Below, in pieces: positions 8,977-54,691 of a stretch of DNA of 64,000 nucleotides. The translations under genes and the position numbers were made by a program. The notes under the pieces were generated by a model that had not been told where the DNA came from, did no database searches, and saw only the letters and a program-made list of their open reading frames with translations. Position 1 is the stretch's first letter. Every line of letters begins with the position of its first letter. The DNA comes from an uncultured delta proteobacterium (GTDB lineage Bacteria > Desulfobacterota > Zymogenia > Zymogenales > Zymogenaceae). The stretch is from positions 960,001 through 1,024,000 of the forward strand of contig CAVTLK010000001.1 of assembly GCA_963735595.1 (NCBI GenBank), in the 5' to 3' direction.

Positions 8977-9801
8977 TCAGTTAGTCCGCTTTTTCGCTTG
9001 CCTGTTCGGGTTCGTCCGCGCACACGGGACGGCCGTCTGGCACTTGCCGCACCCGCCGGCATAGATGTTGCCGTACTTCTGCGGGTATTCGGTAAGTATC
9101 TTTTCCGCGATGAAGTTCATACAGGTGATGTGGTCCTTCTTCTCGGCGGTGACGGCGCCGGCGGGGCACCGGCCGATGCAGTCTCCGCAGGTCCCATCGG
9201 CGTCGTAGATACAGTTTTCCATGAGCGAGGCGGCCGTCCGCGGCGTGTGCGAAAGCGGAAGGTCGCTGATAACCGAGCCGAAGCGCCCGGCGCAGCCCTT
9301 TTCGGTGATGAACGAATAGGAGAGGCAGAAAGTCCCCAATCCGGCGATATAGGCGGTGTGCCGCTCCGACCAGTTGCTGGTGGTGGGCAGCATCACGAAC
9401 CGGTCGGTGCGCGGGGGCGCCACCGCCCGGTGCCCGGCCTGCGTGATTGCGCCGGCCACGTGATCGCGCAGCGCGTTGTTAAATTCTTCGCCCCAGAAAC
9501 GCGCGAGGTACCATTCCTTTGACGGCATCCCCTCGACGCGGTTGCTTTCGACGATCTCCTTGCTGAACGGGAGAAAGTAGGAGACGACGCTACGCGCCCC
9601 CGGCAGCCACTCGTCGGGAGACTGGTGGTGCGGCCCGATAATCCCTTCCTTCTTGAGTTGGCCGTACATCGGGTCTCCGGCCGCCGCGAAGGCCACCAGC
9701 GGCTCCTCGTATATCCGAAGACCAGGGATCGCCGGGATGGCGTTCCTCGAATCGGCTGCCACAAACGCCGTAATCAATTCGCGAATCCGGCTATTGTCCA
9801 T
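8977..9801 (-). CDS. Epoxyqueuosine reductase (QueG)-like Fe-S protein, paralog 2
   Basis: WSERHTAYIAGLG, GCAGRFGS, CGDCIGRCP, CGKCQTAVPC. Confidence 0.78.
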   Translation of the reverse strand: MDNSRIRELITAFVAADSRNAIPAIPGLRIYEEPLVAFAAAGDPMYGQLKKEGIIGPHHQSPDEWLPGARSVVSYFLPFSKEIVESNRVEGMPSKEWYLARFWGEEFNNALRDHVAGAITQAGHRAVAPPRTDRFVMLPTTSNWSERHTAYIAGLGTFCLSYSFITEKGCAGRFGSVISDLPLSHTPRTAASLMENCIYDADGTCGDCIGRCPAGAVTAEKKDHITCMNFIAEKILTEYPQKYGNIYAGGCGKCQTAVPCARTNPNRQAKKRTN

Positions 9802-9813
9802 GCGACTGTAACC

Positions 9814-10627
9814 TCACTTCTTTTTTCTGGGATTTAGGCGCGCGCACGGAACCGCCGTCTGGCACTTGCCGCAGCAGAGGGATCGTATCCCTCCGTATTT
9901 CTCCCGGTACAGGGGGACTACCCGCTCCCGCAGGAAGCTCAGGCAGGCGGCGTGGTCTTTTTTTTTCGGCGGTAATCGCGTTGACGGGGCAGCGGGTGAT
10001 ACAGACCCCGCAGCCGCCGTCGCCTTCGCCCAGGCAGTTTGCGCGAAGCGACAGGATCGTTCGCGGAGACGGCGGCAGGTCGAGGTCGGTGACGACCGAG
10101 CCGAACCGGCCGGCGCACCCCTTCTCGGTGATGAACGAATAGGAAAGGCCGAAGCTGCCCATCCCCGCGATATAGGCGGTGTGGCGCTCCGACCAGTTGC
10201 TGGTTCCGGGCTGCATGAGGAACCGGCCGTCCCGCATCGGGGCGACCGCCGCATGCCCTTCCCCTTTGATCTCATTTGCCACGTGGTCCCGAAGGGCATT
10301 GTTGAAGGTCTCGCCCCAGTGATAAGCGAGATACCACTCCCCCGAGGGCGGGCCCTCGGGCCGGTTGCTCTCCACGATGCGGTCGGTAAAGGGGAGAAAC
10401 CAGGCCACGACGCTTCGGGCGCCGGAAAGCCATTCGTCAGGTCCCCTATGGTAGGGCCCGATCACGCCGCTTTGGGAGAGCGCCGCGTACAGCCGGTCGT
10501 CTGCGGCGGCAAAGGCAACCAGCGGCTCCCTGAAGATCGGGAGGCCCGGGCTCTCAGGAATGGCATTGCCGTGATCGCCGGCCACGAACGCCCTGATAAG
10601 GTCAACAATCCGATCGCGTGTAATCAT
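9814..10627 (-). CDS. QueG-like Fe-S protein, paralog 1, with a +1 frameshift in a 9-nt homopolymer (9958-9966)
   Basis: Colinear with 8977..9801; removing one base restores AEKKDH...CGKCQTAVPC. Confidence 0.75.
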
Positions 10628-10651
10628 CTCGCTTCCGGCCGTCGGCTGTTC

Positions 10652-11098
10652 TTACTTGGTCTCCTTGGTGACGATCAGGTTTTCCAATCCAAGCTCCTTG
10701 AGGATAACCGGGAACATCCCGAACGCGGGGCGCACCACGGGCAGCAGCTTCATCATGGCCGTTATCTTGCCGCCCTGCTTGACCTTACCGCGCGTGACGG
10801 CGGCCACCGGGTTTTCGAGGCCGTGCCAGAAGCTGTGCGAGAAATCGGCGGCCTGCTTGGACCAGACGTCTTCCTTCAGCTCGCAGGGGCCCAGGTAGTA
10901 GTTGCCGTGCATGCCTTCTTTTTTCGGCGGGTTCTTCAGGTCGATGGTGATCTCGGAATCGGGGTCGGTGTATATGAACCTGATGATGATGCCGGCCTTG
11001 CTCATCTTCGGCCCGATCTTGGGGTCGGTGAGGATTCGATTCATAAAGTAGCCGTAGATCTTGTAGAGGTCGTCGGCGTCTTTATAGTACTTTCCCAT
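10652..11098 (-). CDS. SCP2 (sterol/lipid carrier)-like protein
   Basis: FWHGLENPVAAVTRGKVKQGGKITAMMKL resembles the SCP2 C-terminal pattern; GGAGG RBS. Confidence 0.65.
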   Translation of the reverse strand: MGKYYKDADDLYKIYGYFMNRILTDPKIGPKMSKAGIIIRFIYTDPDSEITIDLKNPPKKEGMHGNYYLGPCELKEDVWSKQAADFSHSFWHGLENPVAAVTRGKVKQGGKITAMMKLLPVVRPAFGMFPVILKELGLENLIVTKETK

Positions 11099-11235
11099 GG
11101 GAGGCCTCCTTGATATTACGTTGTATCATAGTGGCCGGTATGCACCGGCGACCCAGCAAGCGGGCGGCATGAATTCCGCCCGTACGGGCCCTCATATAGC
11201 TATGCTTGAACCACCATACTGCCGGCGAACACGCT

Positions 11236-12402
11236 CTACTTGCCCTTCCGCTGGTCGAATCTCCTGCCGAACAGCAGGCTTGCCATCGTGATCCTGAGCA
11301 TCTGCACGGTGCCGCCTGCCACCCGCCAGGCCATTGCGTCACGCGCCATTCGCTCCACGGGGAATTCCGTCGAATAGCCGTACCCGCCGAATATCTGCAT
11401 CGCGGAGACCGCCACCTCAACGGCCATCTCGTTGGCGAAGCACTTGCCCATCGCCGCCTCATAGACCGAGGGAAAGCCCCTGCCCGCCCCGCACGCCGCG
11501 CGGTAAACCAACAGCCGCGCCGCGTCCAGCTTCATTGCCATATCGACGATTTTGAACTGGACGTCCTGGAACTCGCAGATAGGCCGCCCGAAGGCGCTGC
11601 GCTCCTGGGCGTATGCCTTGGCCGCCTCCAGCGCACCCCCCGCGGTGCCCAGGCACATGGCGGCGTTTCCGCACCGCTCCACGTCAAACGTCGACATGAG
11701 GTTGACGAACTCCCCCTCTTTGACGACGAGGTTCTCCTTGGGGACCTTGACGTCCTCGAAGATCAGGTCGCAGGACGGCATGGCCCGTAGCCCCATGAAG
11801 ACCTCCTGCTTCCCGAAGGAAAACCCGGGCATCCCGTTTTCCACCAGCAGCCCGCCGATCCCCTTATAGCCCGGGGTATCGCCGAGCCGGCAGTAGACCA
11901 TGTAGTGGCTGGCGTGCCCGCCGCCGGTGATAAACGTCTTCGTGCCGTTGAGCAGGTAGTGGTCGCCCTTGTCCACGGCCTTGGTGGTCAGCGCCGTCAG
12001 GTCGGAGCCGGCCTCCGGCTCCGTCATGCAGACGGAGACCGAACGCTCTCCCTTGCAGACTTTGGGGATGATCTCCTTTTTCTGCTTTTCCGACCCGTAC
12101 CGGTCGATGACCCGGACGGGGCCGACATTCGATTCAAAGACCGGCGCGGCGATCATCGGCGAGAACTTGGCCAGCTCCTCGACGGCCAGCACCGCGTTGA
12201 GGACGGGCTGCCCCCCGCCGCCGTTCTCCTCCGAAAGCGTCATGCCCAATAAACCCAGCTCGGCGTACTTGGCCATGAGGTGGTAGGGAAACTCCCCGGT
12301 AGCATCGATTTTTTTCGCCAGTTCCTTGAAGTTCTCCCGCTCCCCCATCGTCCTGAGCGTCTCGACGAGCATCTTTTGTTCGTCGGTAAGATTGAAATCC
12401 AT
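11236..12402 (-). CDS. Acyl-CoA dehydrogenase
   Basis: MTEPEAGSD, LNGTKTFIT, RSAFGRPICEFQ, QIFGGYGY; the usual C-terminal catalytic Glu position reads VAGGT. Confidence 0.93.
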   Translation of the reverse strand: MDFNLTDEQKMLVETLRTMGERENFKELAKKIDATGEFPYHLMAKYAELGLLGMTLSEENGGGGQPVLNAVLAVEELAKFSPMIAAPVFESNVGPVRVIDRYGSEKQKKEIIPKVCKGERSVSVCMTEPEAGSDLTALTTKAVDKGDHYLLNGTKTFITGGGHASHYMVYCRLGDTPGYKGIGGLLVENGMPGFSFGKQEVFMGLRAMPSCDLIFEDVKVPKENLVVKEGEFVNLMSTFDVERCGNAAMCLGTAGGALEAAKAYAQERSAFGRPICEFQDVQFKIVDMAMKLDAARLLVYRAACGAGRGFPSVYEAAMGKCFANEMAVEVAVSAMQIFGGYGYSTEFPVERMARDAMAWRVAGGTVQMLRITMASLLFGRRFDQRKGK

Positions 12403-12415
12403 GTTCCGTCCTTTC

Positions 12416-13790
12416 TCAAATATTTTTGGTGATCTGTGTGATATCCGTGACCGTTTCGAGCTTGAGTATTCCGTCGATAAGGGCGTTGAGCTTTTTCACG
12501 TCCCGCTTTCCGGCAAACAGGCGCACCTTTTTTGCCACGGCATCGCTTGTCATGGGGTCGCGCGGGTCGCCCGCGGGCATATCGACCTGCCTGGTGATCT
12601 TTTCGCCGGTCTTCAGGGTAATCTCGACGCGGCTGGCGGTCTTGCCGGGATAGAGCTTATTGAGCTCATCGTCGTAGTTGACCGTGACTTTTTTCGTAAA
12701 CTCGATCAGCGCCGGGTCCGAGAGCCGCTTTTCGGTAAGCTGGACCGGGCCGACCATGCCGTCGGCGATCGCGACCGACACGACGTACGGGATGGAGAAC
12801 TGGGCGTTGACGAAACTATCGTTGAGGACCACCGGTTTCCCGACAGCCAGTACCGCGATCCCGTAGGTGAAGACGTCGACCTTCTCCACGTCCTTCGGGC
12901 CGATTTTCTTTTCGGCCACGAGTTCGATCGTCGCCTGGGCCGACCCGTGCGTGTGCCGGCAGGCGGTATAGGGCTTGAAGTAGATATCGAGGATCGTGAG
13001 GCGTTCTCCCAGTTTGTCGGTGATCCGCTCGAACGCCGGGGGTTGGTCGGTGGTGATCTTGCAGAAACCGCCGTTAAGCTTGGAGCCCTCAAAGACGTTG
13101 GGCATCCCCGTGACGCCGGCGGCGGCCAATTCGGCCGCCAGGAGCCCGCTCTGCGCGGCCTTGCCACCCTGCACGACCTTGACCGTAAAGCCTCCCATGA
13201 GCTGCTCGGCCATGGACAGCGGAACCAGGTAGCCGGCGCAGCCCAGCGCCGAAAGCGTCGTCGCCTTATCCAGCCCCATGAGCTTTGCGGCCGCTATCGC
13301 CGCGCCGAAGGTGCCGGTAGTGCCGGTTGGCAGGAATCCCGAGAGTGTGTGCCGGGGATGGACGGATGCCGCCGCCCGGTCGGCCGCTTCGTAACCCGCG
13401 ACGACGGCAGCGATAACGTCCTTGCCGCCTTTTCCGTTTCTCTCGGCCAGCGCCAGGGCCGTCGGGATCACCGCGGTGCCGGGGTGGTTTCCGCCGAAGC
13501 GCAGGCCGTCCTGCGCCTCTATAGCCTCGGCCGTCACGCCGTTGAGAAACACGGCCTCGAGAATGGGCGCCGAAAACCCGCACCCGAGGCAGGTGACGGG
13601 TCCGCCTGCCGCCGAGCGACTTGACCGTCGAGACGATGCGGGCGACCGCGTCAAGCTCCAGCGATCCGTAGACATTGGCGACGTAGTCCAGGATGCAGAG
13701 CTTGGCCTTTTCAATAACGTCGGCGGACAGCATATCATAGGTGAGATCGTGACAGAAATCAGAGAGTATCTTTGAATAGTCCATAATCAT
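12416..13790 (-). CDS. MmgE/PrpD family protein (+1 frameshift near 13605)
   Basis: N-terminus in ORF 13266..13790, remainder in 12416..13738; NHPG, FKPYTACRHTH, AQFSIPY, GDPRDPM. Confidence 0.85.
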
Positions 13791-13833
13791 TCCCCGTGAT
13801 TACTTCTATGAAAACGGAGTCTTCCTCGGACGT

Positions 13834-14634
13834 CTATACGTATCCCCGCTTCTCGTATATCTTTATCATCCGGTGGGGGTCGAGGATCTCCCGCATGACC
13901 CTGAGCTCCTCGGCCCGCGGCGGCTCGGTCTCGAAGACGTCGGGGGAGACCTTCAGGTCCCAGGGGGTGCTCTTCCTTATCTCCTCAACGGAGCTTCCCG
14001 GATGATACGAGGCAAGGTAGGCCTCCTTGGTCTTGTCGTCGAACCGCATGACCGCCTTGTTGGTGATGAGCGCCGTGGGGCCGGTGCCGGGGGGAAGACC
14101 CCATTTTTCCCTGGCCCCCGGGCCGTCGATGTAGCCGGGTGTCGTGATGAAATCGACCCGTTCGGAGAGCCTCCTGGTATCGTGGAGGGCAATGATGAGG
14201 ACCCGCTTGACGAGGGACCCTATCGGGTTTGCCCCGCCGCTGCCGGGCAGACGGTTCTTGGGGGCGGCGTAGTCGCCGATAACGGTGGTGTTGACGTTTC
14301 CGTACTTATCCACCTGGGAGCCCGCCAGGAATCCCACGTCCACCCAGCCCTTCTGGAGGAACATCCCCATGATATCGACGAGCCCGCCCACAAACGCGGC
14401 GCCGGGGTTGAGGCACGGATCGCCCACCGAGAGGGCTGGCCGGCGCGGCCGGGCGTCGTAAACGCCGGATTCCTGCATCATCACGGCGTTCGGCGCGTGG
14501 GTGTGCTTGGCGATATTGGCCGACATCGTCGGGAAGCCGGTCCCGACGATGACGACGTCGCTGTCGGCAATCTCCCGTGCTCCGCAGCAGGCCATCAATT
14601 CGGGCTTGATGTAGTCGTTGGGATGCGATGACAT
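13834..14634 (-). CDS. gctB: CoA transferase beta subunit, glutaconate CoA-transferase (GctB) type
   Basis: VGTGFP, QESG (catalytic Glu position), QVDKYGNVNTT, RLPGSGGA, VDFITTPG. Confidence 0.85.
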   Translation of the reverse strand: MSSHPNDYIKPELMACCGAREIADSDVVIVGTGFPTMSANIAKHTHAPNAVMMQESGVYDARPRRPALSVGDPCLNPGAAFVGGLVDIMGMFLQKGWVDVGFLAGSQVDKYGNVNTTVIGDYAAPKNRLPGSGGANPIGSLVKRVLIIALHDTRRLSERVDFITTPGYIDGPGAREKWGLPPGTGPTALITNKAVMRFDDKTKEAYLASYHPGSSVEEIRKSTPWDLKVSPDVFETEPPRAEELRVMREILDPHRMIKIYEKRGYV

Positions 14635-14691
14635 AGGAATAGACCCCGCGAGAAATAATCAGATTTCCGCCGGTGCGGCGGCAGTAACGAC

Positions 14692-15627
14692 CTAATATTC
14701 GTAGCTTACCGGGTAGCTGAAGCCGAAGCGCGCCTGGAGCCGGCGGAATGCCTCCCAGCCGAACTTCTTGATGTAATGGTCTATATAGTCGGCCCGGTCC
14801 TTGGTCCCGTATACCCATTCGTCGAGGAATTCCTTGAACCCCTGCTCGGTGTCGGACGCCTTCTGGTAGAGCGAGCCGAAGACGAAATCGACGTCGTAAA
14901 AACCGGGTGTGTAGCCCGGATGGGACCCGTACGGCTCCTCCACCACGGCCGATACCTTGAAATCGGGAACGATCGTGCGCGAGGGGTCAAGGCCGATCAC
15001 CTCCCGGGAGACGATCCGCTCCGCGGAGACGATGACCTTCTTGCTGGCGTTGGCGCCCCACTGGCAGTCCCCGCCGATCCCCCATATCTGGGCGTTCCCG
15101 TTTTCGTCGGACTGCTGCACGTGGATGATGGCTACGTCGGGGGTGAGCGCCGGCACCAGCAGAACGGGGCTCTTGTCGAAGGGGCTCTCGATCATCTTGT
15201 ATTTGTTATCCCCCATGAACCCCTTCACGTTCATGAGGTCGGTGCCCACCATGTCCTTAACCGGCACAAACGGCATGCCCATGGCGCCGGACATGAGCAT
15301 CAGCGGCAGTGAGAGATTGGAGTATTCTTCCAGCTCGATCTTGTGGGGGATTGACTTCTCGATTGACCTGCGGTAGCAGCGCCCCAGCCCGTAGACCCCC
15401 AGAGACAGGAACGTCGCGATGAACCGTTTCACGCAGCCGGCCCCGATCAGCATATCAAAATCGTCGGCGGCGTTGCTCCGGGTGATGGTGAGGTCCTTTT
15501 TACCCTGGCGGATGATCTCGTGGACGGCCGAAAAGGGGGTGCGGCAGATATAGCCGCCGATATAGACAAAATCGCCGTCGGTCACGTGGGCGGCGATTGC
15601 CTCTTTCATGGTGGTGAGTTTACTCAT
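14692..15627 (-). CDS. gctA: CoA transferase alpha subunit, GctA type
   Basis: HEIIRQG, GAMGMPFVP, PDVAIIHVQ..DENGN, PYGSHP. Confidence 0.85.
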   Translation of the reverse strand: MSKLTTMKEAIAAHVTDGDFVYIGGYICRTPFSAVHEIIRQGKKDLTITRSNAADDFDMLIGAGCVKRFIATFLSLGVYGLGRCYRRSIEKSIPHKIELEEYSNLSLPLMLMSGAMGMPFVPVKDMVGTDLMNVKGFMGDNKYKMIESPFDKSPVLLVPALTPDVAIIHVQQSDENGNAQIWGIGGDCQWGANASKKVIVSAERIVSREVIGLDPSRTIVPDFKVSAVVEEPYGSHPGYTPGFYDVDFVFGSLYQKASDTEQGFKEFLDEWVYGTKDRADYIDHYIKKFGWEAFRRLQARFGFSYPVSYEY

Positions 15628-15664
15628 GTGCTACCCAAGAGAAAGGTGTGCTATTCTCAATAAA

Positions 15665-15863
15665 GGCGTCCCCGAAGGGGCCGCCTTCCGGATTGCCGCG
15701 TCATCATCACCCCGCGAAGCAGGCTTCGCTCACGACCCCGATAGGAGAGGCGGTCTCCTCGCAATGACGACCTTTAATCGCGGCCCTTTGGGCCGCACCG
15801 AGATTGCCGCGTCGCTTCGCTCCTCGCAATGACGACCTTTTATCCGCGGCCCTGACGGGCCGC
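15665..15863. repeat. Mosaic of REP-like palindromic units
   Basis: Two copies of GATTGCCGCGTC...CTCCTCGCAATGACGACCTTT (15691-15775, 15802-15840) alternating with three GC-rich hairpins (15665-15685, 15780-15796, 15846-15863). Confidence 0.75.
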
Positions 15864-15869
15864 CTTCTT

Positions 15870-18251
15870 CTAGATTTCGTACATGGTCCGGCAGATGATC
15901 TCGTCCTGAGCCGTATCCGAAAGCCCCGTAAAGAGGACCGAATAGCCGCTGATCCTGACCACGAGGTCTTTATGCTTTTCCGGCTCCTTCTGTGCCGCCT
16001 TCAGGACATCGGTGTCGACCATGTTGAACTGCACCTGCATGCCCCCCTTGTCGAAGTAGGTCTTGATGAAGGCAAGCAGGTTCTCCGGCCTGATCGACTT
16101 TCCGGGGAAGCGCAGGTTGAGGTTTGCCCCGTTGTGGAGCCTGGCCAGGGGGAGCTTGACCACGGAGTTTGCCACGGCGGTGGGCCCGTTCATGGCGTTG
16201 CCGGTGGTCGGCGTCAGCCCGTTGCCCAGGATATCGCCGGAGCTGCGGCCGTCGGGTGTCGCGGCGGTAAACGATCCCATCGCCAGGTGGAACCCGACCG
16301 AGAATATCCCCGGCCAGAACGAGCCGCCGCGGTAATTCTTGTGTTTTCCCAGCTCGTCGCAGAAGCTGTCGACGACCCACGCGGCCATCGCGTCCACCTC
16401 GTCGACGTCGTTGCCGTATTTGGGGATCTTCGTCAGGAAATAGGTCCGCTTGTCCTCGGCGTCCGTCCAGTCGTCGGAGAGATGCCCGACAAGCTCTCCG
16501 ATCGTCATGACCTTATCCTCGAAGACCGCCTTCTTGACGCCATACAGGCTGTCGGCGACGTTGGCAAAACCCATCTGCTGGACGCCGGTGGAGTTATAGA
16601 CGGCGCCGCCGGCCGTGGCGTCCTTTCCCTTTTCGAGGCATCCGCCGATCAGCGCCGAGGCGAAGGGAGAAGGAACGAGCTCGGCGACGGCCTGATCCAT
16701 GCACGCCATCCCCCGGACAACCTGTTTGATGAAGTGAGACTGCTGGGCGGCGTAGGCCTTCTTGACGTCCTCGAAAGACGTAAATTCCGCCGGGTCGCCC
16801 GTTTCGAGGCCCGACTGATAGCCAAAGGTGTTGTCGATCCCGTTGGAGAGCGCCAGTTCCATGCACTTGATCCCGTTGAACTGAACCGCGAAGGTGGAGC
16901 CGTAGGTCTTGCCCTGGGCGTTGGGCTCCAGGCAGCCCACCGGCCCGTAGTCACGGGCATCGGCGATCGTGTGGCCGCCGGCCGTCAGGGCTTTAACGAC
17001 TGCCTCGTCGTTGAAGAAGTGCATCAGGACCCCTTCCTTGGCGTAGCCGACCGCCCGCATGAAGAAGTCGCGGGGCGTCTTTTCGGAGATCCTGACCCCG
17101 AAGTTGGGCTGGACCGTCCTGATATCGGCGTAGGCATCCAGGCCGATATAGGTCATCTCCGTGACGGCGTCGTTGCCCTTCTCGTCGATCCCTCCGACGA
17201 CGACGTTCTGGGTCGTCTTCCCCTCGGTACCCTCGCCGCCGGGGATAAACGTTTCTTCAAGGACATTCCATATTTCGCACATCTTGAGGAACATGAGCGA
17301 CAGGAGCTCCTTGGCTCCGTCATAGGTGATCCTTCCCTCCTTCTTGTCTGCCTCATAGTAGGGAGAGAGGATCCGGTCGATGCGCCCCAATGAAATCGAG
17401 TTTCCGCCCGACTCGATCTGGGAGATCAGGTGAACGAAATAGACCGATTGGACGGCCTCACGGTAGCTCCGGGCGGGGTGCTCGGGGACGCGGGCGCAGA
17501 CCCGGGCGATCTCGGCAAGCTCCGCCTTGCGGGCCGGGTCTTTTTCACTTTCGGCCAGGCGGGATGCCTCCAGAGCGTAGCGGTTGGCAAACCTGATCGC
17601 GGCCTCGAGCGACCGGATAACGGCTTCGTAAAAAAGCCCCGCATCGCCCTTCTTCGGGGCGGCGGGTAAGGCCGCGAGTTTCCCCTGGGCCTCCTTGATA
17701 ATCCCTCTGAGGCCGACCTTCAGCAGCTTTTCGTGATCCATCGTAAAATGGCCGACGCCGTAGGTGATCTCCAGCATCATCGTGAAGATATATTTATCCA
17801 TGTCGTCGGTGACGTCTGCAGGAAGCAGCTCGGTGAGGCGCTCTTCCACCGTCTTGCCCCGCCAGAAGGGGAGGATCTCATCGGTGAGTTCCTTTTGTTC
17901 GGCCTCGGTAATGAGCGCCCGCTGGATAACCCGCTGATTAAAGCCTTCGAGGTCCCCCTCGATCCACTGGGACTTATTCTCGGGGAAGAGCGGCGCACCC
18001 TTTTTCTTCTCCGTCCGTGACCCGACGATCAGCTCATCGTCCCGGATGACCACGCTGATGTTATCGAGGATTTCCGCCAGCGCAAGGCTTATCCTTGTCA
18101 GGGAGGGCTCGGCCCAGTGTTTCTTCATGGATGCCGTAAGGTAGCGCGCCCTTTGGACGCTTACCTCCTGCGGGGCATTGACGATCGCTTCCCTCAGTTT
18201 CCAGACCCGGGAAGTCGGGGCTTTTTGCGCGTTGGTCTCTTGGGATAACAT
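15870..18251 (-). CDS. Glycyl radical enzyme (PFL-fold), substrate unassigned
   Basis: Glycyl loop LVVRISGYS, single-Cys loop VGCLEP, SLGRID, QNVVVGG, PKYGND, ATPDGR; start placed at ATG 18251 behind AAGGAGG (793 aa). Confidence 0.92.
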   Translation of the reverse strand: MLSQETNAQKAPTSRVWKLREAIVNAPQEVSVQRARYLTASMKKHWAEPSLTRISLALAEILDNISVVIRDDELIVGSRTEKKKGAPLFPENKSQWIEGDLEGFNQRVIQRALITEAEQKELTDEILPFWRGKTVEERLTELLPADVTDDMDKYIFTMMLEITYGVGHFTMDHEKLLKVGLRGIIKEAQGKLAALPAAPKKGDAGLFYEAVIRSLEAAIRFANRYALEASRLAESEKDPARKAELAEIARVCARVPEHPARSYREAVQSVYFVHLISQIESGGNSISLGRIDRILSPYYEADKKEGRITYDGAKELLSLMFLKMCEIWNVLEETFIPGGEGTEGKTTQNVVVGGIDEKGNDAVTEMTYIGLDAYADIRTVQPNFGVRISEKTPRDFFMRAVGYAKEGVLMHFFNDEAVVKALTAGGHTIADARDYGPVGCLEPNAQGKTYGSTFAVQFNGIKCMELALSNGIDNTFGYQSGLETGDPAEFTSFEDVKKAYAAQQSHFIKQVVRGMACMDQAVAELVPSPFASALIGGCLEKGKDATAGGAVYNSTGVQQMGFANVADSLYGVKKAVFEDKVMTIGELVGHLSDDWTDAEDKRTYFLTKIPKYGNDVDEVDAMAAWVVDSFCDELGKHKNYRGGSFWPGIFSVGFHLAMGSFTAATPDGRSSGDILGNGLTPTTGNAMNGPTAVANSVVKLPLARLHNGANLNLRFPGKSIRPENLLAFIKTYFDKGGMQVQFNMVDTDVLKAAQKEPEKHKDLVVRISGYSVLFTGLSDTAQDEIICRTMYEI

Positions 18252-18345
18252 AGCGGCCTCCTTAGCTGCTTGCGTTTGCTCCCTCATCAAAGATGAGTGT
18301 TATACTATACAATTATCCCACCTGTTTGAGTAACTGGCAACTGTT

Positions 18346-19176
18346 TTATACCTTGATCTTCATGTAACCTACCAGTATAGAATCCTTGATGCGCTTCGGC
18401 AGGAATCGGTTCAGCTTCATCAGGAACGAGTCGGCGAACAGGAGCTGGTTGTAGAACTTGGGCCGATCTTTCTTGAGGATATTCACGATGGTACGGGCGG
18501 CCGCCTCCGGCGTAGGGGCTGACTTGATGAGCTCGTTGTCCCGATCGATGAACCGCTTGACTCGATCGCGATAGGGCGATTTTTCCGGGGGGAGTTTGTG
18601 GATCTTGGCGGCGAACGTGGTGGAAACCTGGGCCGGCTCGATGATGGCGACCCTGATGCCGAAGGGTTTGACCTCGTATTCCATCGACTCGATGAACCCC
18701 GTAATGGCGAACTTGGAGGCCGTGTAGATCGACTCGAACGGAAACGGTATGCGGCCGACGAGCGACGACATGGCGATGAGCTTGCCGCCACCGGCCTTTC
18801 TCATCGACGGGATGAAGGCCTGGAAGATGGCCATCGCCCCGATGACGTTGATCTCGAGGCACTTGAGTGCCTTTTCGAGGTCGATCTCCTCAAAGGGACC
18901 GAAGAAGCCGATCCCGACGTTGGAGAGCACCGTATCGACCGTCCCGTATTTCTTGAGGACGTCGTCCCGGAACTTCAGGATGCCCTTTCGGTTGGTGACG
19001 TCCAGCGCGATCAGGTGGTGATCCCCGCCGCCTGCTTTGAGTTCCTTCTTGAGCGATTCGATGGCGGTTGCGTTCATGTCAAACCCGGCGACGGAATATC
19101 CGTCGGCCGCCATGATCTTGGCAACTTGCCTGCCCATTCCTTCCCCGAGGCCGGTGATGACGATCGTCTTTTTCAT
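18346..19176 (-). CDS. Short-chain dehydrogenase/reductase
   Basis: TGLGEGMG, NVGIG, SS, YTASK. Confidence 0.88.
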   Translation of the reverse strand: MKKTIVITGLGEGMGRQVAKIMAADGYSVAGFDMNATAIESLKKELKAGGGDHHLIALDVTNRKGILKFRDDVLKKYGTVDTVLSNVGIGFFGPFEEIDLEKALKCLEINVIGAMAIFQAFIPSMRKAGGGKLIAMSSLVGRIPFPFESIYTASKFAITGFIESMEYEVKPFGIRVAIIEPAQVSTTFAAKIHKLPPEKSPYRDRVKRFIDRDNELIKSAPTPEAAARTIVNILKKDRPKFYNQLLFADSFLMKLNRFLPKRIKDSILVGYMKIKV

Positions 19177-19281
19177 AATAGCTCCATTATTATATACGGT
19201 TTATTACACTCAGCTCCAAATCCCGTTCCTATGTCGCGCCGCGGCGGTCGGATAATAGATCACCCGCGGCACTATACGCCG

Positions 19282-20283
19282 TTATCGCATCTCCAGCTTC
19301 CCGTCCCGATAGAGCCGTGCTATCTCTTCCATCGACTTCTCGAAATCGGGATAGAGAAACGTGAAGCCGCTCTTCTTGAGCGCGGCGTTGTCCACCACGT
19401 AGTCGTGATAGAGATACTGCGACCGCGTCGTACTCGAGGTCCGGGTACCTTCCCCTTCCGGGCGGACACGAAGCCGTCGGCCTTGGCGGCGATCTTGACG
19501 AGCCACAACGGCAGGTGAAGCGTGGGCGGCTTTTTCCCGAAGGCCAGGGCCGCCAGGCGTCAGGGCCCGCTCGATGGTCGGTTTGGAATCGTCGACGATG
19601 TTGTAGATCTTGCCGGTGTTGCCCGAAAGCTCCGACAGGTGCACCACCGCCCGCGCCACGTCCTCCGCACGGACGTTGGCGAGAAGCTGCTTGCCGCTGC
19701 CGGGGATCGCCGTGATCGAGGTGGGCCGGGAAAAGGCCTTGCCCGCCCCGTCCGTACAGCGGGGGCCGTAGACGGTGCAGGGGCGGCAGAGGATCGGCGT
19801 CAAGCCCCTTTTCGAGCGCCGCAAACAGCATATTCTCGCCGTCCCTCTTGCTCCTGCCGTAGTCGTCCTGCGGGTTGCGCGGAGAGTCTTCCCGGAAGGG
19901 GGAGCCGGTATACGGCCCGTAGACGCTGGTGGAGGTCACGTGGACGAACCGCTTGACCCCCGCCTTGATGGCCGCCTCCGTGATCAGGGCAACCCCCGCC
20001 ACGTTGGTGGGATAGAGGCGCTCATAGGGCGTGGAGAAATTGCAGATCGCCCCCATGTGGATGACCCGATCGACCTCTCCCTCAAACAGCGGCGGCACCG
20101 TCTCGGGCTTCGTCAGGTCGGCGGCCACGTACTGGACCCCCAGCCGGTCGAAAAACGACGTGTCTTTTCTGGGCCGGGCGGTGGCCCTGACCTTGACGCC
20201 CGATTTGGCCAGGTGTTCGACCAGGTGGCTCCCCATGAAAGCCGGCGGCCCCGGTAACCAACGTGATCCCGGTAGAATTTCAC
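19282..20283 (-). CDS. NAD-dependent epimerase/dehydratase (extended SDR), broken by about six +1 insertions
   Basis: Reconstructed across frames: LVTGAAGFMGSHL, TSTSVYG, YGRSK, RPCTVYGP; GTG start at 20283 behind AGGAGG, overlapping the PadR stop. Confidence 0.75.
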
Positions 20284-20883
20284 GTCGTTCCTCCTGTGGT
20301 TGCGACCGCTTTAACGTTCTCCCGGTCTATCGTATCCCCGCTGCTGCGGGATTTCCGGGAGGATATCTCGGCCTGAATCTCGACCTTGACGCGCTCAAGC
20401 CAGGCCAGCATCATCTCGTTGAGCGAAATACCCAGTTCTCTCATAAGACGGACGTTGGTGTTCTCGTTCTGTTTATGGTCGTATCGGTGGCGCCGTGAGG
20501 AGAGATCCGCGTGATAGATCCGTATCTGCTCCTCGATGATTTCGAGGGACCGTTCTTTATCCCCGAAGGAGAAAGAAGACGAACTTGAGCAGAAAAGGAT
20601 CGCGGATGAGCATTCCCCGCTCGGGCGCCGTATTGAGCCACTCCGCAAAGGCCTCTTCACCCTTCTCGGTGATGGAATAGAGCTTCTTGTCGGGGACGTT
20701 TTTCTGGGCCACGTCGACCTTCGTCACCAGCCCCTCCTGCTCGAGCTGCTTGAGGTTCGGGTAGATCTGACCGTAGTTGATGGACCACATGAAGCCGAAT
20801 TCATTCTCGATGACTTCCTTGATACGGTAGCCGTGCATATCTTTGTAATGAAGCAGTCCCAGGATGGCGTATTTCACGGACAT
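20280..20883 (-). CDS. PadR family transcriptional regulator (+1 frameshift near 20572)
   Basis: AILGLL, HGYRIK, GQIYPNLKQLEQEGLV, KKLYSITEKG; C-terminal domain continues in ORF 20280..20660. Confidence 0.85.
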
Positions 20884-20990
20884 GGTGTTTCCTCGCGGGT
20901 AGTGGGAAAAGGACTCGATCGGTCGGCGGGAAAAGGGAGCATCGGATCGCCGGAGGACCGATACGACGTTACGGGGAAGGCCGATGAATT

Positions 20991-21028
20991 TATGTCGAAA
21001 GTATATATATCCATAGTATATATGTCAA
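20991..21028 (-). promoter_or_regulatory. Sigma-70 promoter of the PadR/GRE cluster with overlapping repeats
   Basis: Minus strand TTGACA-17 nt-TATACT (21028-21000); TATRTC-N4-GTATATA repeated at a 15-bp period. Confidence 0.7.
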
Positions 21029-25472: not shown

Positions 25473-26486
25473 ATGAAAAAGGTAGCGATTAACGGGTTGG
25501 GAAGAATCGGACGACTCATCCTGCGCAATTTCATCGAAACGCCCCCGGGCGCCACAGGTGAGATAGAAATAGTGGCAGCAAATGACCTTACCCCGATGGA
25601 CGACCTGGCTTACCTCATGCGCTACGACTCGGTCCACGGGAGGGCCCCCTTCGAGGTGAAATTCGGCGAAGGTTCCCTCGATCTCGGGGGAAAACGTATC
25701 GCCGTCACCCACGAGAAGGACCCCGCGAACCTCCCCTGGAAAGCGCTCGGGATAGACACCGTCATGGAGTGCACGGGAGCCTTCCGCGGGCGCGCCGATG
25801 CCGGCAAACATATCGACGCCGGGGCGTCCCATGTCATCATCAGCGCCCCGTCCGAGGATGTCGACGCCACCTTCATCGTCGGCGTCAACGAAAAGACCTA
25901 CGATCCCGCCAAGCACCGCGTCGTCTCCAATGCCTCCTGCACCACCAACTCGCTCGCCCCGACGGTCAAGGTCATGAACGACACCTTCGGCGTGGAGTAC
26001 CTGTTTGTAACCACCGTCCACGCCTATACGTCAAGCCAGTCCCTCGTGGACAAGGCCGCCCGAAAGATGCGCCGGGGCAGGGCCGCGGCCGTCTCGTTCA
26101 TCCCCACATCCACCGGCGCCGCCGACGCCACCGCCCTGGTCATCCCGGAGCTGAAGGGGAGGATGAACGCCATCGCCGTGCGGGCGCCCGTGCCGGACGG
26201 GTCGCTCACCGATATCGTCGCCGTCCTGAAAAAGGACGTCACCGTCGAGACCCTGAACGGGGCGTTCAAGGCGGCGGCCGACGGTCCTTTGAAGGGGATT
26301 CTGGCCTATAGCGAGGAAGAGCTGGTGTCGGCCGATATCATCGGCTGCCCCCACTCGGGCGTCGTAGACGGACTGTCCACGATGGTTATCAAGGACCGGT
26401 TTGTCAAGGTCTTCGTCTGGTACGACAACGAATACGGCTATTCCCACCGGATGCTCGACCTGGCGCGTCACATGGCGCGTGCATAG
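25473..26486 (+). CDS. gap: Type I glyceraldehyde-3-phosphate dehydrogenase
   Basis: INGLGRIGR, SNASCTTN, PTSTGAA, WYDNEYGYS. Confidence 0.93.
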   Translation: MKKVAINGLGRIGRLILRNFIETPPGATGEIEIVAANDLTPMDDLAYLMRYDSVHGRAPFEVKFGEGSLDLGGKRIAVTHEKDPANLPWKALGIDTVMECTGAFRGRADAGKHIDAGASHVIISAPSEDVDATFIVGVNEKTYDPAKHRVVSNASCTTNSLAPTVKVMNDTFGVEYLFVTTVHAYTSSQSLVDKAARKMRRGRAAAVSFIPTSTGAADATALVIPELKGRMNAIAVRAPVPDGSLTDIVAVLKKDVTVETLNGAFKAAADGPLKGILAYSEEELVSADIIGCPHSGVVDGLSTMVIKDRFVKVFVWYDNEYGYSHRMLDLARHMARA

Positions 26487-26625
26487 CCCCGAACACGGTG
26501 CAGTACCGGCCGTTTCGTCTTGATTTTTTCCGCCGATAGGCTATGATGGAGCGGTAATCGGCAATCTGAATCGCCCCTGTTCGGCCGCAGCTGTTGCCGC
26601 CCGCTCACCACATAGAGGAGGTAGT

Positions 26626-27315
26626 ATGTACTGGCACCTCATCCCGGTACCGCTTGTCCTTATCGTCATCGGGTTTTACGCCGTGGCCCGCGCCAAAAAC
26701 GACCTCAAACGGGTGGCGGTTGTCCAGCCGCTGGGCACGATCCTTGCCATTGTGATCTGCGCCCTCTCCCTCCTAACGCCGCATGCCGTCGTCGGTTTTA
26801 CCGCGTTCATCCTCGCGGGCCTGGTGCTGGCGTTAATCGGCGACTTCCTCAACGTCGACATGACCAGCCAGAAGGTCGTCATTGTGGGCCTGGTCATATT
26901 CGTCTTCGCCTATCTGGCCTACGCCGTCGGAATGGCCTTCTACAACGGCTTCCATAGCGCCGACCTGATCGTCGCAGCGGCGCTGCTGGCGATCCTGTGC
27001 GCCCTCATGGCCTACCTCTGGCCGGGGCTCGGCCCCATGAGGATACCGTTCGTCATCTACGGCGCGATCCTCTGCATCATGGTCAACCGGGCCGTTTCCA
27101 CCTTCTTCGGGGACGCCTTTTCCACGACCCAGGCCGTCCTCCTGACCGCGGGAACGCTGATGATATTTTTCGGAGACATGCTGTTTGCGGTCACGTCCTA
27201 TAAAAAGCCGTCCCCGCCACCTGCGGCCGTCTCCCTGAACCTTGCGGGGCCGGCCATGTACGCCGGCGCGCAGCTCCTCATTGCGCTTGCGCCCTCCTAC
27301 TTTCCCGGGGGATAG
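26626..27315 (+). CDS. YhhN / lysoplasmalogenase family membrane protein
   Basis: Multi-TM; LALIGDFL, MRIPFVIYG, FFGDMLFA, YAGAQLLIA. Confidence 0.7.
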   Translation: MYWHLIPVPLVLIVIGFYAVARAKNDLKRVAVVQPLGTILAIVICALSLLTPHAVVGFTAFILAGLVLALIGDFLNVDMTSQKVVIVGLVIFVFAYLAYAVGMAFYNGFHSADLIVAAALLAILCALMAYLWPGLGPMRIPFVIYGAILCIMVNRAVSTFFGDAFSTTQAVLLTAGTLMIFFGDMLFAVTSYKKPSPPPAAVSLNLAGPAMYAGAQLLIALAPSYFPGG

Positions 27316-27400
27316 CCGGGAATACCGACCAGGCCCGTGGCACGGCCCCCCTGTCTGAGGCCGCACCGCATGGTCGCTGTCTGTTACACGGAGAAACCGA

Positions 27401-28927
27401 ATGGCCCCGGATACCGACGCCGCGCGAGCCGACGCCAAATCGATTGCCGTCTTCGACGTCGGCAAAACCAACAAGAAACTACTGGTCTTCAATCACCGCC
27501 TGGAGCTCGTGGACGCGGTCTACCACACCTTCGACCAGTACGAGAAAGACGGCGTACAGATCGAGGCCGTGGAGGAGACCTCCGCGTGGCTGATCGCCTC
27601 GCTCAAGGCAATGGCCGCGAAGCACGACATCGGGGCGATCTCGGTATCAACCCACGGGGCGGCCTTTGCCATGATAGACGGCGGCGGCAGGCTCGCGGCG
27701 CCGGTGCTCTCCTACACCACCGACCCCGGTCAGGATTTTTCCTCACGGTTCTCGGCCCAATTCGGCGACCCGGTAACGCTGCAAAGACAGACCAAGACGC
27801 CCGATATGATTGGGTTGGGCTGCATGGCGAAGGGCATCATGTTTGCCCGGGAGCGCTGGCCCGAGGCTTTCAAGAGGGTCTCGGCCATCCTGCCGCTTCC
27901 GCAATACTACGGATTCGTCCTGACGGGCAACAAGGCGATCGACCCGACCAACGTCGGGTGCCACACCGCCTTCTGGAACTTCGAGAAGGGCGACTGGTCG
28001 CCCGTTATCGAGCGGATGGGCATGCGCGCGATCTTCCCCCAATCCATATCGAACCCGTGGGATATCCTCGGGACCGTCAGGCCCGACGTCGCCCGTGAGA
28101 CCGGGCTTTTCGAGGATACGGTGGTGACCGTCGGCATCCACGACTCTAACGCATCGCTCCTGCCCTACCTTATCAAGGAAACGCGCCCGTTTGTCGTCAA
28201 CTCCACGGGCACGGTCTCGGTTTCGTTGCGACCCACGCCGGACGTTACGCTGGCCGACGAGGACCTCGGAAAGGTCGTCTACTACAATCTCTCGGCCTTC
28301 AAGACCCCCGTCAAAACGACCATCTTCATGGGGGGGATGGAGTTCGACACCTATATGGGCCTGCTTTCCTCGATCCACGGCTCGCCCGCACACCCCCCGC
28401 TGGACAAGGCACTGCTGGAAGATATCCTCACGGCCCGCCGGCTCTTTGTGCTCCCCTCGTTTATCCCCTTCGGGATGTTCCCGGACTCCGCCGCCAGGGT
28501 CGTGGAGGGAGATACGGTCATTATGCTGGGAGACCTCTTCGGCGGCACGCACCCCGCGTTTTTCGGGGACTACGCGGCCGCCTACCACGTCCTGGTGCTG
28601 TCGGTGGCCCTGCAGGCCGAGGTCGCGCTCTCGGCCGTGGGCCTGGCCGACGGGATGCGGCTCTTCATCGAGGGGGGTTTTGCCAAAAACGAGATCTATA
28701 CGAGGCTGCTCGCCGCCCTCTTCCCGAAGGCTGCCACGGCCACCACGAACCTCTCGGAGGCCACGGCGTTCGGCGCGGCGCTGATGGGCAAGGCGGCGCT
28801 GATGGGAACCGACCCCCGCGGGCTTTCGGACCTCTTTGAGATCGAGGAAAATCCCGTGCCCCCGGAGGAGTTCAAAGGGCTTGACGGATATCGAACGGAG
28901 TTCCTGAAAATGGTTGGGGGGAAATAG
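27401..28927 (+). CDS. FGGY-family carbohydrate kinase
   Basis: FDVGKTNKK, STHGA, GIHDSNA, STGT, EGGF, EATAFGAA. Confidence 0.8.
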   Translation: MAPDTDAARADAKSIAVFDVGKTNKKLLVFNHRLELVDAVYHTFDQYEKDGVQIEAVEETSAWLIASLKAMAAKHDIGAISVSTHGAAFAMIDGGGRLAAPVLSYTTDPGQDFSSRFSAQFGDPVTLQRQTKTPDMIGLGCMAKGIMFARERWPEAFKRVSAILPLPQYYGFVLTGNKAIDPTNVGCHTAFWNFEKGDWSPVIERMGMRAIFPQSISNPWDILGTVRPDVARETGLFEDTVVTVGIHDSNASLLPYLIKETRPFVVNSTGTVSVSLRPTPDVTLADEDLGKVVYYNLSAFKTPVKTTIFMGGMEFDTYMGLLSSIHGSPAHPPLDKALLEDILTARRLFVLPSFIPFGMFPDSAARVVEGDTVIMLGDLFGGTHPAFFGDYAAAYHVLVLSVALQAEVALSAVGLADGMRLFIEGGFAKNEIYTRLLAALFPKAATATTNLSEATAFGAALMGKAALMGTDPRGLSDLFEIEENPVPPEEFKGLDGYRTEFLKMVGGK

Positions 28928-33827: not shown

Positions 33828-34122
33828 ATTCGCTCCGTAATAAAGGCAACGGCACAACAAACGTGCCGCCGGGGCAGTGACGGTTGGCGAAAAATCCGCC
33901 GGTAAAATCGAGCGCCTTAACTATAACTAAATAACTTCGGAAAATCAAGTAAAGATTAATAATAGCCCACCGGGGACTCGTTTTCGTTCCTGTCCATAGC
34001 CGCAACCATCCGCCGGGAAACGCGACCCGCTCGACGGACGGCTCCAATTTCCTTGTATATTTACGGCCCGCACAGTATAATGGCCGGGATTTTTGTTGAC
34101 GCCGACCGCCGGAGGGTACGAC

Positions 34123-35475: not shown

Positions 35476-35597
35476 AAGGGAGCAATAGGAGGTCTGACGC
35501 ACCGGTCGGTTCAGGATAGGCACGCGGCTCATCCCCGGCATCAGGTTTCATAATAGATACTGTTTCTTTCATATCACTATCATAGCAGGAGACTTCG

Positions 35598-45058: not shown

Positions 45059-45177
45059 CGTTGACTCCTTAGTAGGATTACGATATAGGACATGAAGATG
45101 CCGCGCCAGTGCCATAGGCCGGATCGTGAAAGGAACCGCGGCGCCCGTTAGATACTGCCTGCTTTTAGAGGACATAA

Positions 45178-45248
45178 TTTGTACGACTGTACAAACAAGT
45201 ACCACGGACGGGCGGCGATGTCAAGATAATTTTGTACGATCGTACAAA
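45178..45248. promoter_or_regulatory. Two palindromic operators flanking a TTGACA box in the abfD/TetR divergon
   Basis: TTTGTACGACTGTACAAA (45178-45195) and perfect TTTGTACGATCGTACAAA (45231-45248). Confidence 0.78.
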
Positions 45249-53288: not shown

Positions 53289-53468
53289 GAATGACCTCTA
53301 TACAGGGCGTCCCTGGCGGATGCCCGCTTACTTACCCGTATCTTCGGGATTCCTCGATATCGAAGGCGGCGTACATGCCTTCACGGACAGACGGTTATCT
53401 ACCGGCTGCCGTCACGGGCGGTCGAAAGGCTGTGGTATTTTCAATCCGACCGCAATCGCTCGTCCTTC

Positions 53469-54617: not shown

Positions 54618-54691
54618 CGTATGTTCCCTCTCATTGGTATTCCATATGGTGTTACGATAAGATCTCAGGGATCTGCCGGCCGCCGGCATCC

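Follow-up and report, generated by a model that had tools for sequence, protein, structure and literature searches.

The window analysed here is the whole stretch of 64,000 nucleotides presented above, which corresponds to positions 960001-1024000 of contig C1 of an uncultured delta proteobacterial genome (G000, 3.63 Mb in 5 contigs). Eleven genes, all on the minus strand, run from position 20883 to position 8977 and encode a PadR regulator, an extended short-chain dehydrogenase/reductase (SDR), a classical SDR, a glycyl radical enzyme (GRE), the two subunits of a class I CoA-transferase (GctA and GctB), an MmgE/PrpD-family protein, an acyl-CoA dehydrogenase (ACAD), a small SCP2-like protein and two QueG-like proteins, in the order and common orientation that an earlier reading of the letters alone (the sequence-only reading) had described. 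Comparison of this operon with its relatives showed that the GRE clade and the operon are real, conserved and uncharacterised, and that nine of the genes (those for PadR, the two SDRs, the GRE, GctAB, MmgE/PrpD, the ACAD and the SCP2-like protein) form a conserved cassette. Coordinates are window positions unless a label is given, the labels G, C and L designating genomes, contigs and compared loci.

Conservation of the cassette and its promoter

The loci compared came from a GRE search of GTDB genomes, from members of the window's family and from genomes picked by their SCP2-like gene. We dropped a locus without partner genes (L075), loci only 27-29% identical (L078-L081), the other half of a split locus (L020), a locus whose contig ends before the GRE (L100) and duplicates (L011-L013, L017, L021, L098, L099, L102 and L103). 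The counts given below refer to the remaining 66 de-duplicated clade loci, each gene being counted where the flank was long enough; closely related loci among them are not independent.

Around the GRE, padR was present in 40/44 loci, the extended SDR in 47/50, the classical SDR in 52/54, gctA in 48/58, gctB in 43/53, prpD in 42/51, the ACAD in 42/47 and the SCP2-like gene in 40/41. All eight partners were found in 26 of the 31 loci with both flanks, and both SDRs together with the SCP2-like gene in 29. The expected conservation of the neighbourhood, including the genes left of the GRE, was thus confirmed for GctA, GctB, PrpD, the ACAD and the SCP2-like protein, and failed for the QueG-like pair, which had been counted as part of the cluster. 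The QueG-like genes occurred in 6/35 loci, all in the window's family, and were rejected as part of the cassette; their proteins scored 41.6 and 22.1 bits on the QueG equivalog (cut-off 200), which does not make them epoxyqueuosine reductases. In 9-10 loci the GRE occurs without GctAB and PrpD, mostly together with the SDRs and the SCP2-like gene, and we therefore consider the classical SDR, the extended SDR, the GRE and the SCP2-like protein to be the core. A gene of the DUF362 Fe-S type lies in or after the operon in L031, L036, L037, L061, L068 (between gctA and gctB) and L095.

The reverse test, starting from the SCP2-like gene, found an ortholog in 22/401 genomes of the phylum. We fetched 10 of the 12 positive genomes outside the window's family: nine carry a GRE at 64-70% identity and in the tenth the contig ends, 4/10 being duplicates of earlier loci. 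GREs 87-98% identical to that of the window were found in relatives annotated as Candidatus Zymogenaceae or uncultured delta proteobacterium. Annotated hosts included Desulfobacterota, Spirochaetota, Syntrophomonadaceae, Smithella, Syntrophaceae and Binatia, to which protein names add Dehalococcoidia, and the range of the clade covers Desulfobacterota, Spirochaetota, Bacillota, Chloroflexota and others. Many such hosts (Smithella, Syntrophaceae, Syntrophomonadaceae, Spirochaetota) degrade fatty acids.

This assembly has frameshifts in four genes, namely those for PadR, the extended SDR and the MmgE/PrpD protein and the first of the two QueG-like genes. The comparison with short-read contigs covered positions 20571, 20237, 19796 and 9958, the break in prpD lying outside it, and showed that the extra bases were absent at 20571 and 20237 in 2/4 runs, at 9958 in 3/4 and at 19796 in 4/4. 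The padR, extended SDR and prpD genes are whole in L022, L024 and L059, and broken at different places in L023. The frameshifts are likely to be errors of the long-read assembly.

The sequence-only reading had placed one strong promoter ahead of the operon. The sequence upstream of padR matches the consensus at 11/12 positions; the promoter scan as a whole returned 4 sites vs 3.3 expected, and the single match, taken alone, is within chance. The promoter is credible because it is conserved upstream of padR and not because of its match score: TTGAC followed by TATA(T/C)A was found in 41/42 loci upstream of padR, and in none of the 21-53 upstream stretches of each of seven other genes. The spaced box TATA(T/C)A-N5-T(A/G)TATA was present in 31/42 padR upstream regions and upstream of none of the seven other genes. 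In the two loci that have lost padR (L044 and L058), the box is absent and the TTGAC promoter-like sequence is retained. These TATATA boxes are a candidate autoregulatory operator, to which PadR would bind. With at most one mismatch, the box occurred at 13 merged places in the genome, only one other of which (C5:279672) is directly preceded by TTGAC, and no link of that place to the pathway was seen in this genome-wide search. Its TTGAC promoter and TATATA boxes (G000:C5:279660-279720) lie between a gene for an ACAD and a short one in divergent orientation.

Table 1. Features of the operon in window positions, from its promoter to its last gene
Feature	Position	Strand	Remarks
Sigma-70-type promoter TTGACA-17-TATACT	21000..21028	-	TATATA boxes at 21022, 21009 and 21007 overlap; candidate PadR operator
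PadR-family regulator with C-terminal Vir_act_alpha domain, ~184 aa	20327..20883	-	Pfam PF03551; extra bases near 20571 and 20336
Extended SDR, 331 aa in relatives, frameshifted here	19282..20282	-	TGAAGFMG, YxxxK, basic motif after beta-2
Classical SDR, 276 aa	18346..19176	-	TGxxxGM, YxASK, Asp at beta-2 end
Glycyl radical enzyme (GRE), 793 aa	15870..18251	-	His168 17748-17750, Cys440 16932-16934, Glu442 16926-16928, Gly769 15945-15947
REP-like short palindromic repeat, two copies between GRE and gctA	15798..15835	.	19 genome matches including the query itself
Class I CoA-transferase, GctA-like subunit, 311 aa	14692..15627	-	PF01144
Class I CoA-transferase, GctB-like subunit, 266 aa	13834..14634	-	Best PDB match 1poi_B, E 2e-58
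MmgE/PrpD-family protein, 455 aa in relatives	12416..13784	-	Frameshift near 13606; His and two Lys motifs retained
Acyl-CoA dehydrogenase (ACAD), 388 aa	11236..12402	-	VAGGT and FD(I/V)ERC motifs
SCP2-like small protein, 148 aa	10652..11098	-	79% mean column identity among orthologs
QueG-like Fe-S protein copy 1	9814..10624	-	Frameshift near 9958-9966; family-specific passenger
QueG-like Fe-S protein copy 2, 274 aa	8977..9801	-	Family-specific passenger; 67% identical to copy 1 over 222 residues

The REP-like repeat was ruled out as an element specific to the operon by its matches across the genome; it coincides with a depth spike in the DNA runs and with numerous loose ends of unrelated contigs. 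In one wetland metatranscriptome, contigs touched 29/30 bins, one of them bridging the ACAD and SCP2-like genes and one giving a weak joint between the extended and the classical SDR; these contigs belong to relatives, are mostly 90-95% alike and possibly derive from DNA.

Family placement and active site of the glycyl radical enzyme

The GRE, whose start is at 18251 rather than at a longer TTG start at 18290, contains the domains PF02901 (residues 27-672) and PF01228 (residues 690-787), and its score on TIGR01774 (678.6 against a cut-off of 678.2) places it in the superfamily. The VGCLEP and RISGY motifs reported from the letters are present at residues 438-443 and 766-770. The enzyme scored under the cut-off of every characterised equivalog, the best being HpfG (567/1000 bits), followed by PflD (517/1109), HypD (510/1100), HpsG (485/1000), CutC (464/1050), IAD (385/1100) and HPAD (294/1150). 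In agreement with the sequence-only reading, it is not a pyruvate formate-lyase, since it has GCLE in place of Cys-Cys and scores 152.7 bits vs 994.2 on TIGR01255. Genes of the clade that are annotated as formate C-acetyltransferase are accordingly not pyruvate formate-lyases. The accessible text of a preprint credits Zymogenia with formate C-acetyltransferase (bioRxiv 10.1101/2021.03.22.436540), and misannotated GREs are a likely cause; the pyruvate formate-lyase cut-off was reached in 0/5 genomes of the family that were searched (G000, G001, G006, G007 and G008).

The best matches among solved structures were glycerol dehydratase (GD; 585 bits) and 1,2-propanediol dehydratase (PD; 517 bits), with benzylsuccinate synthase (BSS) and MASS at 279 and 257 bits and 7e7l ranking low. 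Identity to the GRE was 39.4% for GD, 34.6% for PflD, 33.9% for HypD and 32.4% for YbiW. Among representatives of 50%-identity clusters, one is 64% identical to the GRE and the next 45%; an NCBIfam scan of 60 of the 150 nearest representatives found one member of a characterised family, a CutC (P0242), which is 30% identical to the GRE and lies elsewhere in the tree. In a quick tree of 36 rows, which was built without HpfG, HpsG, PD, BSS and the decarboxylases, the GRE and its orthologs grouped at an SH-aLRT support of 100, apart from GD, PflD, YbiW, HypD and a CutC. A total of 674 proteins, among 7998 scored, matched at E <= 1e-200; the 120 listed of these are 66-100% identical, and membership of the clade was checked for part of the 674. 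The comparison with characterised GREs that the sequence-only reading had proposed thus puts the enzyme in a clade of its own and, as had been supposed, outside the characterised isofunctional clusters. No description of the GRE clade or of the operon was found in the literature searched, the coverage of which leaves out most subscription papers.

Two sequences near the clade are worth recording. P0122, an 828-aa member or relative on a long branch, has a Gly in place of the catalytic Cys and is possibly decayed or non-catalytic. The sister GRE of the dropped locus L075 (L075:9959-12346; 52-54% identical) has the same pocket residues and none of the partner genes.

The active-site positions were assigned by sequence alignment at 39% identity to GD. 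In 121/121 clade sequences, His168, Ser285, Cys440, Glu442 and Gly769 are present and correspond to His164, Ser282, Cys433, Glu435 and Gly763 of GD, so that the Cys-X-Glu (CXE) motif (C440-L-E442) and the His at the position of the GD acid are both invariant. Five other GD residues (His281, Tyr339, Asp447, Tyr640 and Ser642) are replaced, again in 121/121 sequences, by Asn284, Thr347, Phe454, Phe650 and Val652. We take the positions of GD His281, Tyr339, Asp447 and Tyr640 to line the pocket, and Val652 to be the counterpart of the methyl-side Val of PD. The places of the Arg-Gln-Arg sulfonate anchor presumably map to Tyr164, His168 and Gly648 of the GRE. Tyr164, Glu340, Lys345 and Gln457 are also invariant in the clade. 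According to the accessible part of a 2026 review of the GRE superfamily, CXE is the mark of eliminases and isomerases, is present also in the decarboxylases HPAD and IAD, and acts in GD with His164 as acid and Glu435 as base (PMC13450708).

Comparison of the GRE with the systems of known function showed both likenesses and differences. It keeps the triad residues of the B12-independent GD of Clostridium butyricum (1r8w/1r9d) and of PD (5i2a/5i2g), an aldehyde being the likely product there as here, but differs in its separate clade, in its pocket residues, in the lack of an adjacent activase and in the lipid-carrier-like, CoA-transferase, MmgE/PrpD and ACAD partners of its operon. The 2,3-dihydroxypropane-1-sulfonate (DHPS) systems (HpfG dehydratase, HpsG sulfo-lyase and HpsO-HpsP racemase) similarly convert a chiral 3-substituted 1,2-diol by dehydration into an aldehyde that is then oxidised or reduced, with two dehydrogenases inverting the stereocentre; unlike them, the present loci show no recurring TRAP transporter genes, the scores on HpfG and HpsG are about half of the cut-offs, and the partners suggest a lipophilic product rather than a sulfonate. 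YbiW and PflD, which open the ring of 1,5-anhydrohexitol-6-phosphate, show, as far as the accessible text of the review goes, that an ether C-O bond can be broken by a radical enzyme with CXE (PMC13450708). They have the same His position, but no phosphotransferase system or aldolase genes adjoin the GRE, which scores 517/1109 bits on the corresponding model. From HypD the GRE differs further in having Asn284 where HypD has Asp, and in the lack of a pyrroline-5-carboxylate (P5C) reductase. The absence of microcompartment and P5C reductase genes noted earlier holds among the open reading frames (ORFs) scanned in the window, where there is no activase gene either, and no small Fe-S subunit gene of the kind accompanying BSS and HPAD recurs in the loci among clustered ORFs of at least 80 aa, which agrees with the earlier observation.

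Partner enzymes, aldehyde oxidisers and activases

The classical SDR has an Asp after beta-2, and the extended SDR has a basic RP(R)K-type motif in all orthologs. An Asp at this place goes with NAD and a basic motif with NADP, which suggests that the classical SDR uses NAD(H) and the extended SDR NADP(H). A pair with such opposite cofactor motifs could invert a carbinol, by analogy with the two-dehydrogenase racemase HpsO-HpsP for DHPS, the lack of which has been linked, in the part of the source available, to the use of one enantiomer by the GRE pathway (PMC13335735). The likeness of the SDRs to steroid dehydrogenases that had been proposed did not survive: they are generic, with a best PDB match at E 5e-29 and all NCBIfam SDR models below cut-off, and we rejected the steroid reading.

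GctB is nearest to glutaconate CoA-transferase and keeps its Glu, in QESG vs VESG there; this Glu is the catalytic one of glutaconate CoA-transferase. In the ACAD, a Gly replaces the catalytic Glu of butyryl-CoA dehydrogenases (VAGGT vs IYEGT), and a Glu is found in FD(I/V)ERC, which we take to be the position of the base in isovaleryl-CoA and long-chain acyl-CoA dehydrogenases; the enzyme would therefore suit a beta-substituted or long acyl-CoA. Its best equivalogs were a desulfinase (355/600) and acryloyl-CoA reductase (342/640), both below cut-off. The MmgE/PrpD protein is closer to iminodisuccinate (IDS) epimerase and IRG1 than to PrpD, and its step is the least certain of the pathway. The SCP2-like label is tentative: the protein has no match in Pfam (PF02036) or NCBIfam, and what speaks for the label is an ESM Atlas feature similarity of 0.94 to clusters in which 20-40% of members have SCP2, and a top PDB match to an archaeal SCP2 structure that is non-significant (E 0.25).

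Genes for aldehyde:ferredoxin oxidoreductase (AOR) or aldehyde dehydrogenase (ALDH) were found within 10.5 kb in 23/40 of the loci whose downstream flank reaches 8 kb or more, and in 23/34 of those outside the window's family, the AOR usually lying directly after the SCP2-like gene. The SCP2-like protein of L052 forms one polypeptide with a complete ALDH; three longer SCP2-like homologs were found among 134 candidates, all of them ALDH fusions, and together with that of L052 these four proteins are 67-74% identical. The only fusions found are thus to ALDH, the SCP2-like gene of the present operon being separate. Since aldehyde oxidisers lie nearby and the SCP2-like protein is fused to ALDH, the product of the GRE is likely to be a lipophilic aldehyde.

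Other additions vary between relatives. An iron-type alcohol dehydrogenase (Fe-ADH) is inserted together with an ALDH in four loci and belongs to two unrelated types, one in L068, L082 and L104 and the other in L070, where another ACAD accompanies it. In L049 the place of gctAB-prpD is taken by an acyl-CoA ligase; a PON1-like (paraoxonase-like) hydrolase and an MFS transporter are each found in 9 loci, and an alkyl sulfatase in one (L057). In G000 itself, a 55%-identical AOR (C5:329110-330975) lies behind an Fe-ADH-like gene and another SCP2-like gene; a similar AOR is present in G001 and G008, while those of G006, G007 and G279 are only 35-37% identical. The run to which the AOR of G000 belongs (G000:C5:322782-330978; acyl-CoA ligase, TetR-like, Fe-ADH-like, SCP2-like and AOR genes) is likely a module for the oxidation of long-chain alcohols that could serve the operon.

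A GRE activase was found within 10.5 kb in only 3/66 loci (L050, L052 and L065) and there is none in the operon of the window. The sequence-only reading had taken up neither this lack nor the aldehyde oxidisers of the relatives. Genome G000 has four GREs and one activase, frameshifted (C2:564182-565102), which lies beside another GRE outside all NCBIfam families; the members of the family combine several GREs with 1-2 activases. A tree built from 25 activases showed a clade (support 98/95) with the activase encoded inside the L052 operon, the sole activase of G313, single ones from G051, G184, G241, G279 and G039, and the G006 and G007 orthologs of the G000 activase. The three pieces of the G000 activase are 85, 61 and 49% identical to the G006 protein. 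A search with the G313 activase matched 52/401 genomes of the phylum, 18/22 of those with the SCP2-like gene vs 34/379 of the others; outside the window's family, 12/12 SCP2-positive genomes matched, one of them being the source of the query. Counting broken or cut copies in G000, G003 and G009, the activase clade is present in 21/22 SCP2-positive genomes. We propose the activase of the C2 type as a candidate trans-activator of the GRE. Activation is described as the bottleneck of GRE work in the accessible part of the review (PMC13450708).

The other GREs of this genome deserve a separate mention. The one beside the activase (G000:C2:564182-567517 with it) has 800 aa with GCLE and RVTGY and scores below all NCBIfam cut-offs; related pairs exist in other Desulfobacterota. 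Two more (G000:C5:36642-39637 and C5:862043-864412) are frameshifted and without an adjacent activase, the former having a long N-terminal extension that appears SCP2-like by eye.

Substrate and rival explanations

Both the residues and the gene neighbours agree with the earlier proposal of a CXE eliminase for some hydrophobic, hydroxylated substrate, the identity of which is unproven. We consider it somewhat more probable than the sum of the alternatives that the GRE catalyses a C-O elimination by which a diol becomes a lipophilic aldehyde. The GD-like triad, the SDR pair, the beta-substituted type of the ACAD and the alcohol-oxidising inserts would all be explained by a glycerol-like head that occurs naturally in two configurations; an alkylglycerol is therefore our preferred candidate, a choice that is tentative and more likely wrong than right.

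In the scheme we propose, the carbinol at C2 would be inverted by way of the ketone by the two SDRs, the classical one working with NAD and the extended one with NADP, which would make either enantiomer available to a stereospecific GRE. This enzyme would act on a lipophilic compound that ends in a 1,2-diol, most likely an alkyl glyceryl ether, and dehydrate it to the aldehyde: the thiyl radical of Cys440 would take the hydrogen of C1, Glu442 would deprotonate the C1 hydroxyl and His168 would protonate the leaving C2 hydroxyl, as in GD, while the space for a greasy tail would be provided by Phe454, Phe650, Val652 and Thr347. The SCP2-like protein may carry the aldehyde to an AOR or ALDH, after which the CoA ester would be formed by GctAB, or in some relatives by a ligase, and desaturated by the ACAD; the MmgE/PrpD protein might act as a hydratase, lyase or epimerase helping to free the alkyl chain. 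PadR would repress at the TATATA boxes, and activation in trans by the sole activase of the genome would give the GRE its glycyl radical. It is doubtful, and slightly less assured than the alkylglycerol itself, that this is the first GRE attacking ether lipids. Such an enzyme would provide syntrophs and fermenters with an oxygen-free route for dismantling the glycerol part of ether lipids from bacteria and archaea, in which the SDR pair would admit both glycerol configurations, the SCP2-like protein would shuttle the aldehyde and the activase would serve an unrelated GRE as well.

A direct ether lyase would take the hydrogen beside a free hydroxyl and expel an alkoxide, freeing a fatty or isoprenoid alcohol from an alkyl- or dialkylglycerol, the freed alcohol then being oxidised to acyl-CoA by Fe-ADH, ALDH or AOR and the SCP2-like carrier. 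The cleavage of a ring ether C-O bond by YbiW and PflD with the same CXE, as given in the accessible text of the review (PMC13450708), and with the same His would support it, as would the insertion of Fe-ADH and ALDH in 4 loci, the alkyl sulfatase of L057 and the separate run of Fe-ADH, SCP2-like and AOR genes at C5:327214-330978. We nevertheless hold this lyase to be improbable, given that Fe-ADH occurs in only 4/66 loci, that two long chains would presumably have to enter a buried site, and that identity to YbiW and PflD is only 32-35%. A comparably low weight is given to another lipophilic polyol, hydroxy acid or lactone (a hopanoid side-chain polyol, a cutin-type dihydroxy acid or a terpenoid diol), for which a paraoxonase-like enzyme would open the lactone and GctAB and MmgE/PrpD would act on the carboxylate before or after the GRE. 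The PON1-like hydrolase of 9 loci, the nearness of GctB to glutaconate CoA-transferase, the His and Lys motifs kept by an MmgE/PrpD protein nearest IDS epimerase and IRG1, and the invariant Lys345 and Gln457 point in this direction, but 9-10 loci have the GRE and no GctAB or PrpD, most of them with the SDRs and the SCP2-like gene. Genes resembling 2-hydroxyacyl-CoA dehydratases lie within 10 kb in 6 loci but are only 26-46% identical to each other and are probably chance neighbours.

An ammonia-lyase for sphingoid bases, which would convert the 2-amino-1-ol end of sphinganine to 3-hydroxy-octadecanal while the SDRs act on the C3 hydroxyl, seems distinctly unlikely. The 158 bits of the SDR on the 3-ketodihydrosphingosine reductase model, which would suit it, fall well short of the cut-off of 400 and are no better than the scores on generic SDR models; a penicillin-amidase-family acylase does follow the AOR in L067 and L076, but no neutral ceramidase was found above cut-off in 5/5 operon-bearing genomes searched. 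The invariant Glu340, which aligns with a loop serine of HypD, could bind ammonium, against which stand the His, and not Asp, at the leaving-group position and the Asn in place of the HypD Asp, a residue that CutC has too. Least probable, and very much so, is a radical decarboxylase or a fumarate-adding enzyme, with the MmgE/PrpD epimerase, GctAB and the ACAD handling a succinate adduct as in the alkane and toluene pathways. MmgE/PrpD genes do occur in alkylsuccinate synthase clusters, and the automatic Atlas names of 2 of the top 3 clusters are 4-hydroxyphenylacetate decarboxylase; the presence of CXE in HPAD and IAD, per the accessible text (PMC13450708), would allow a decarboxylase. The scores on IAD and HPAD lie at about a third and a quarter of their cut-offs, BSS and MASS are far behind the 585 bits of GD, no small Fe-S subunit gene recurs, and the aldehyde oxidisers would be left without a role.

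Several points weigh against the dehydration of a lipophilic diol as we propose it. Gct-type transferases and MmgE/PrpD proteins have mostly been described as acting on polar di- and tricarboxylates, a poor fit for a lipid, and the SCP2 label is weak. The invariant Glu340, Lys345, Gln457 and Tyr164 are possible ligands of a charged or polar group, and the pocket residues depend on the distant GD alignment. No nearby aldehyde oxidiser was found in 17/40 loci, including the window's operon and family, G006 and G007 have no close ortholog of the AOR (35%), no crotonase for an enol-ether step recurs in the loci, and two Binatia loci have the GRE and none of the partners. An Fe-ADH also follows the GD gene, where it is a reductase, and need not mean that an alcohol is released. 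For the activase, kinship and lifestyle confound the co-occurrence, and the query came from one of the 18 positives; no member of the activase clade was found in G001 (89% complete), and this activase normally lies beside another GRE with the Gly loop RVTGYN vs RISGYS here. GRE activases are mostly specific, and cross-activation is rare and tied to like Gly loops, according to the accessible part of the review (PMC13450708).

The accessible text of the same review names no eliminase or isomerase with a lipid substrate, and 'ether' and 'sterol' occur in it 0 times (PMC13450708). The GRE clade would add new radical chemistry and a new branch of carbon flow in sediments and digesters and, if the substrate is an ether lipid, an enzyme for the anoxic breakdown of a major class of biomarkers. 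With a candidate activase, a candidate operator and a likely product class, the system is directly testable.

Elsewhere in the window, genes for GAPDH, YhhN (lysoplasmalogenase family) and an FGGY kinase lie in a row at 25473-28927, and a patatin gene and an MFS transporter gene, also related to lipids, at 34093-36965; neither group is conserved with the operon. A protein of the HpaB / 4-hydroxybutyryl-CoA-dehydratase fold is encoded at 43628-45205 in this anaerobe, and a similar gene lies beside the operon in L018. The minus-strand run at 52242-57963 contains genes for an FHA protein, a Ser/Thr kinase with a PQQ-like propeller, a VWA protein and a PP2C phosphatase.

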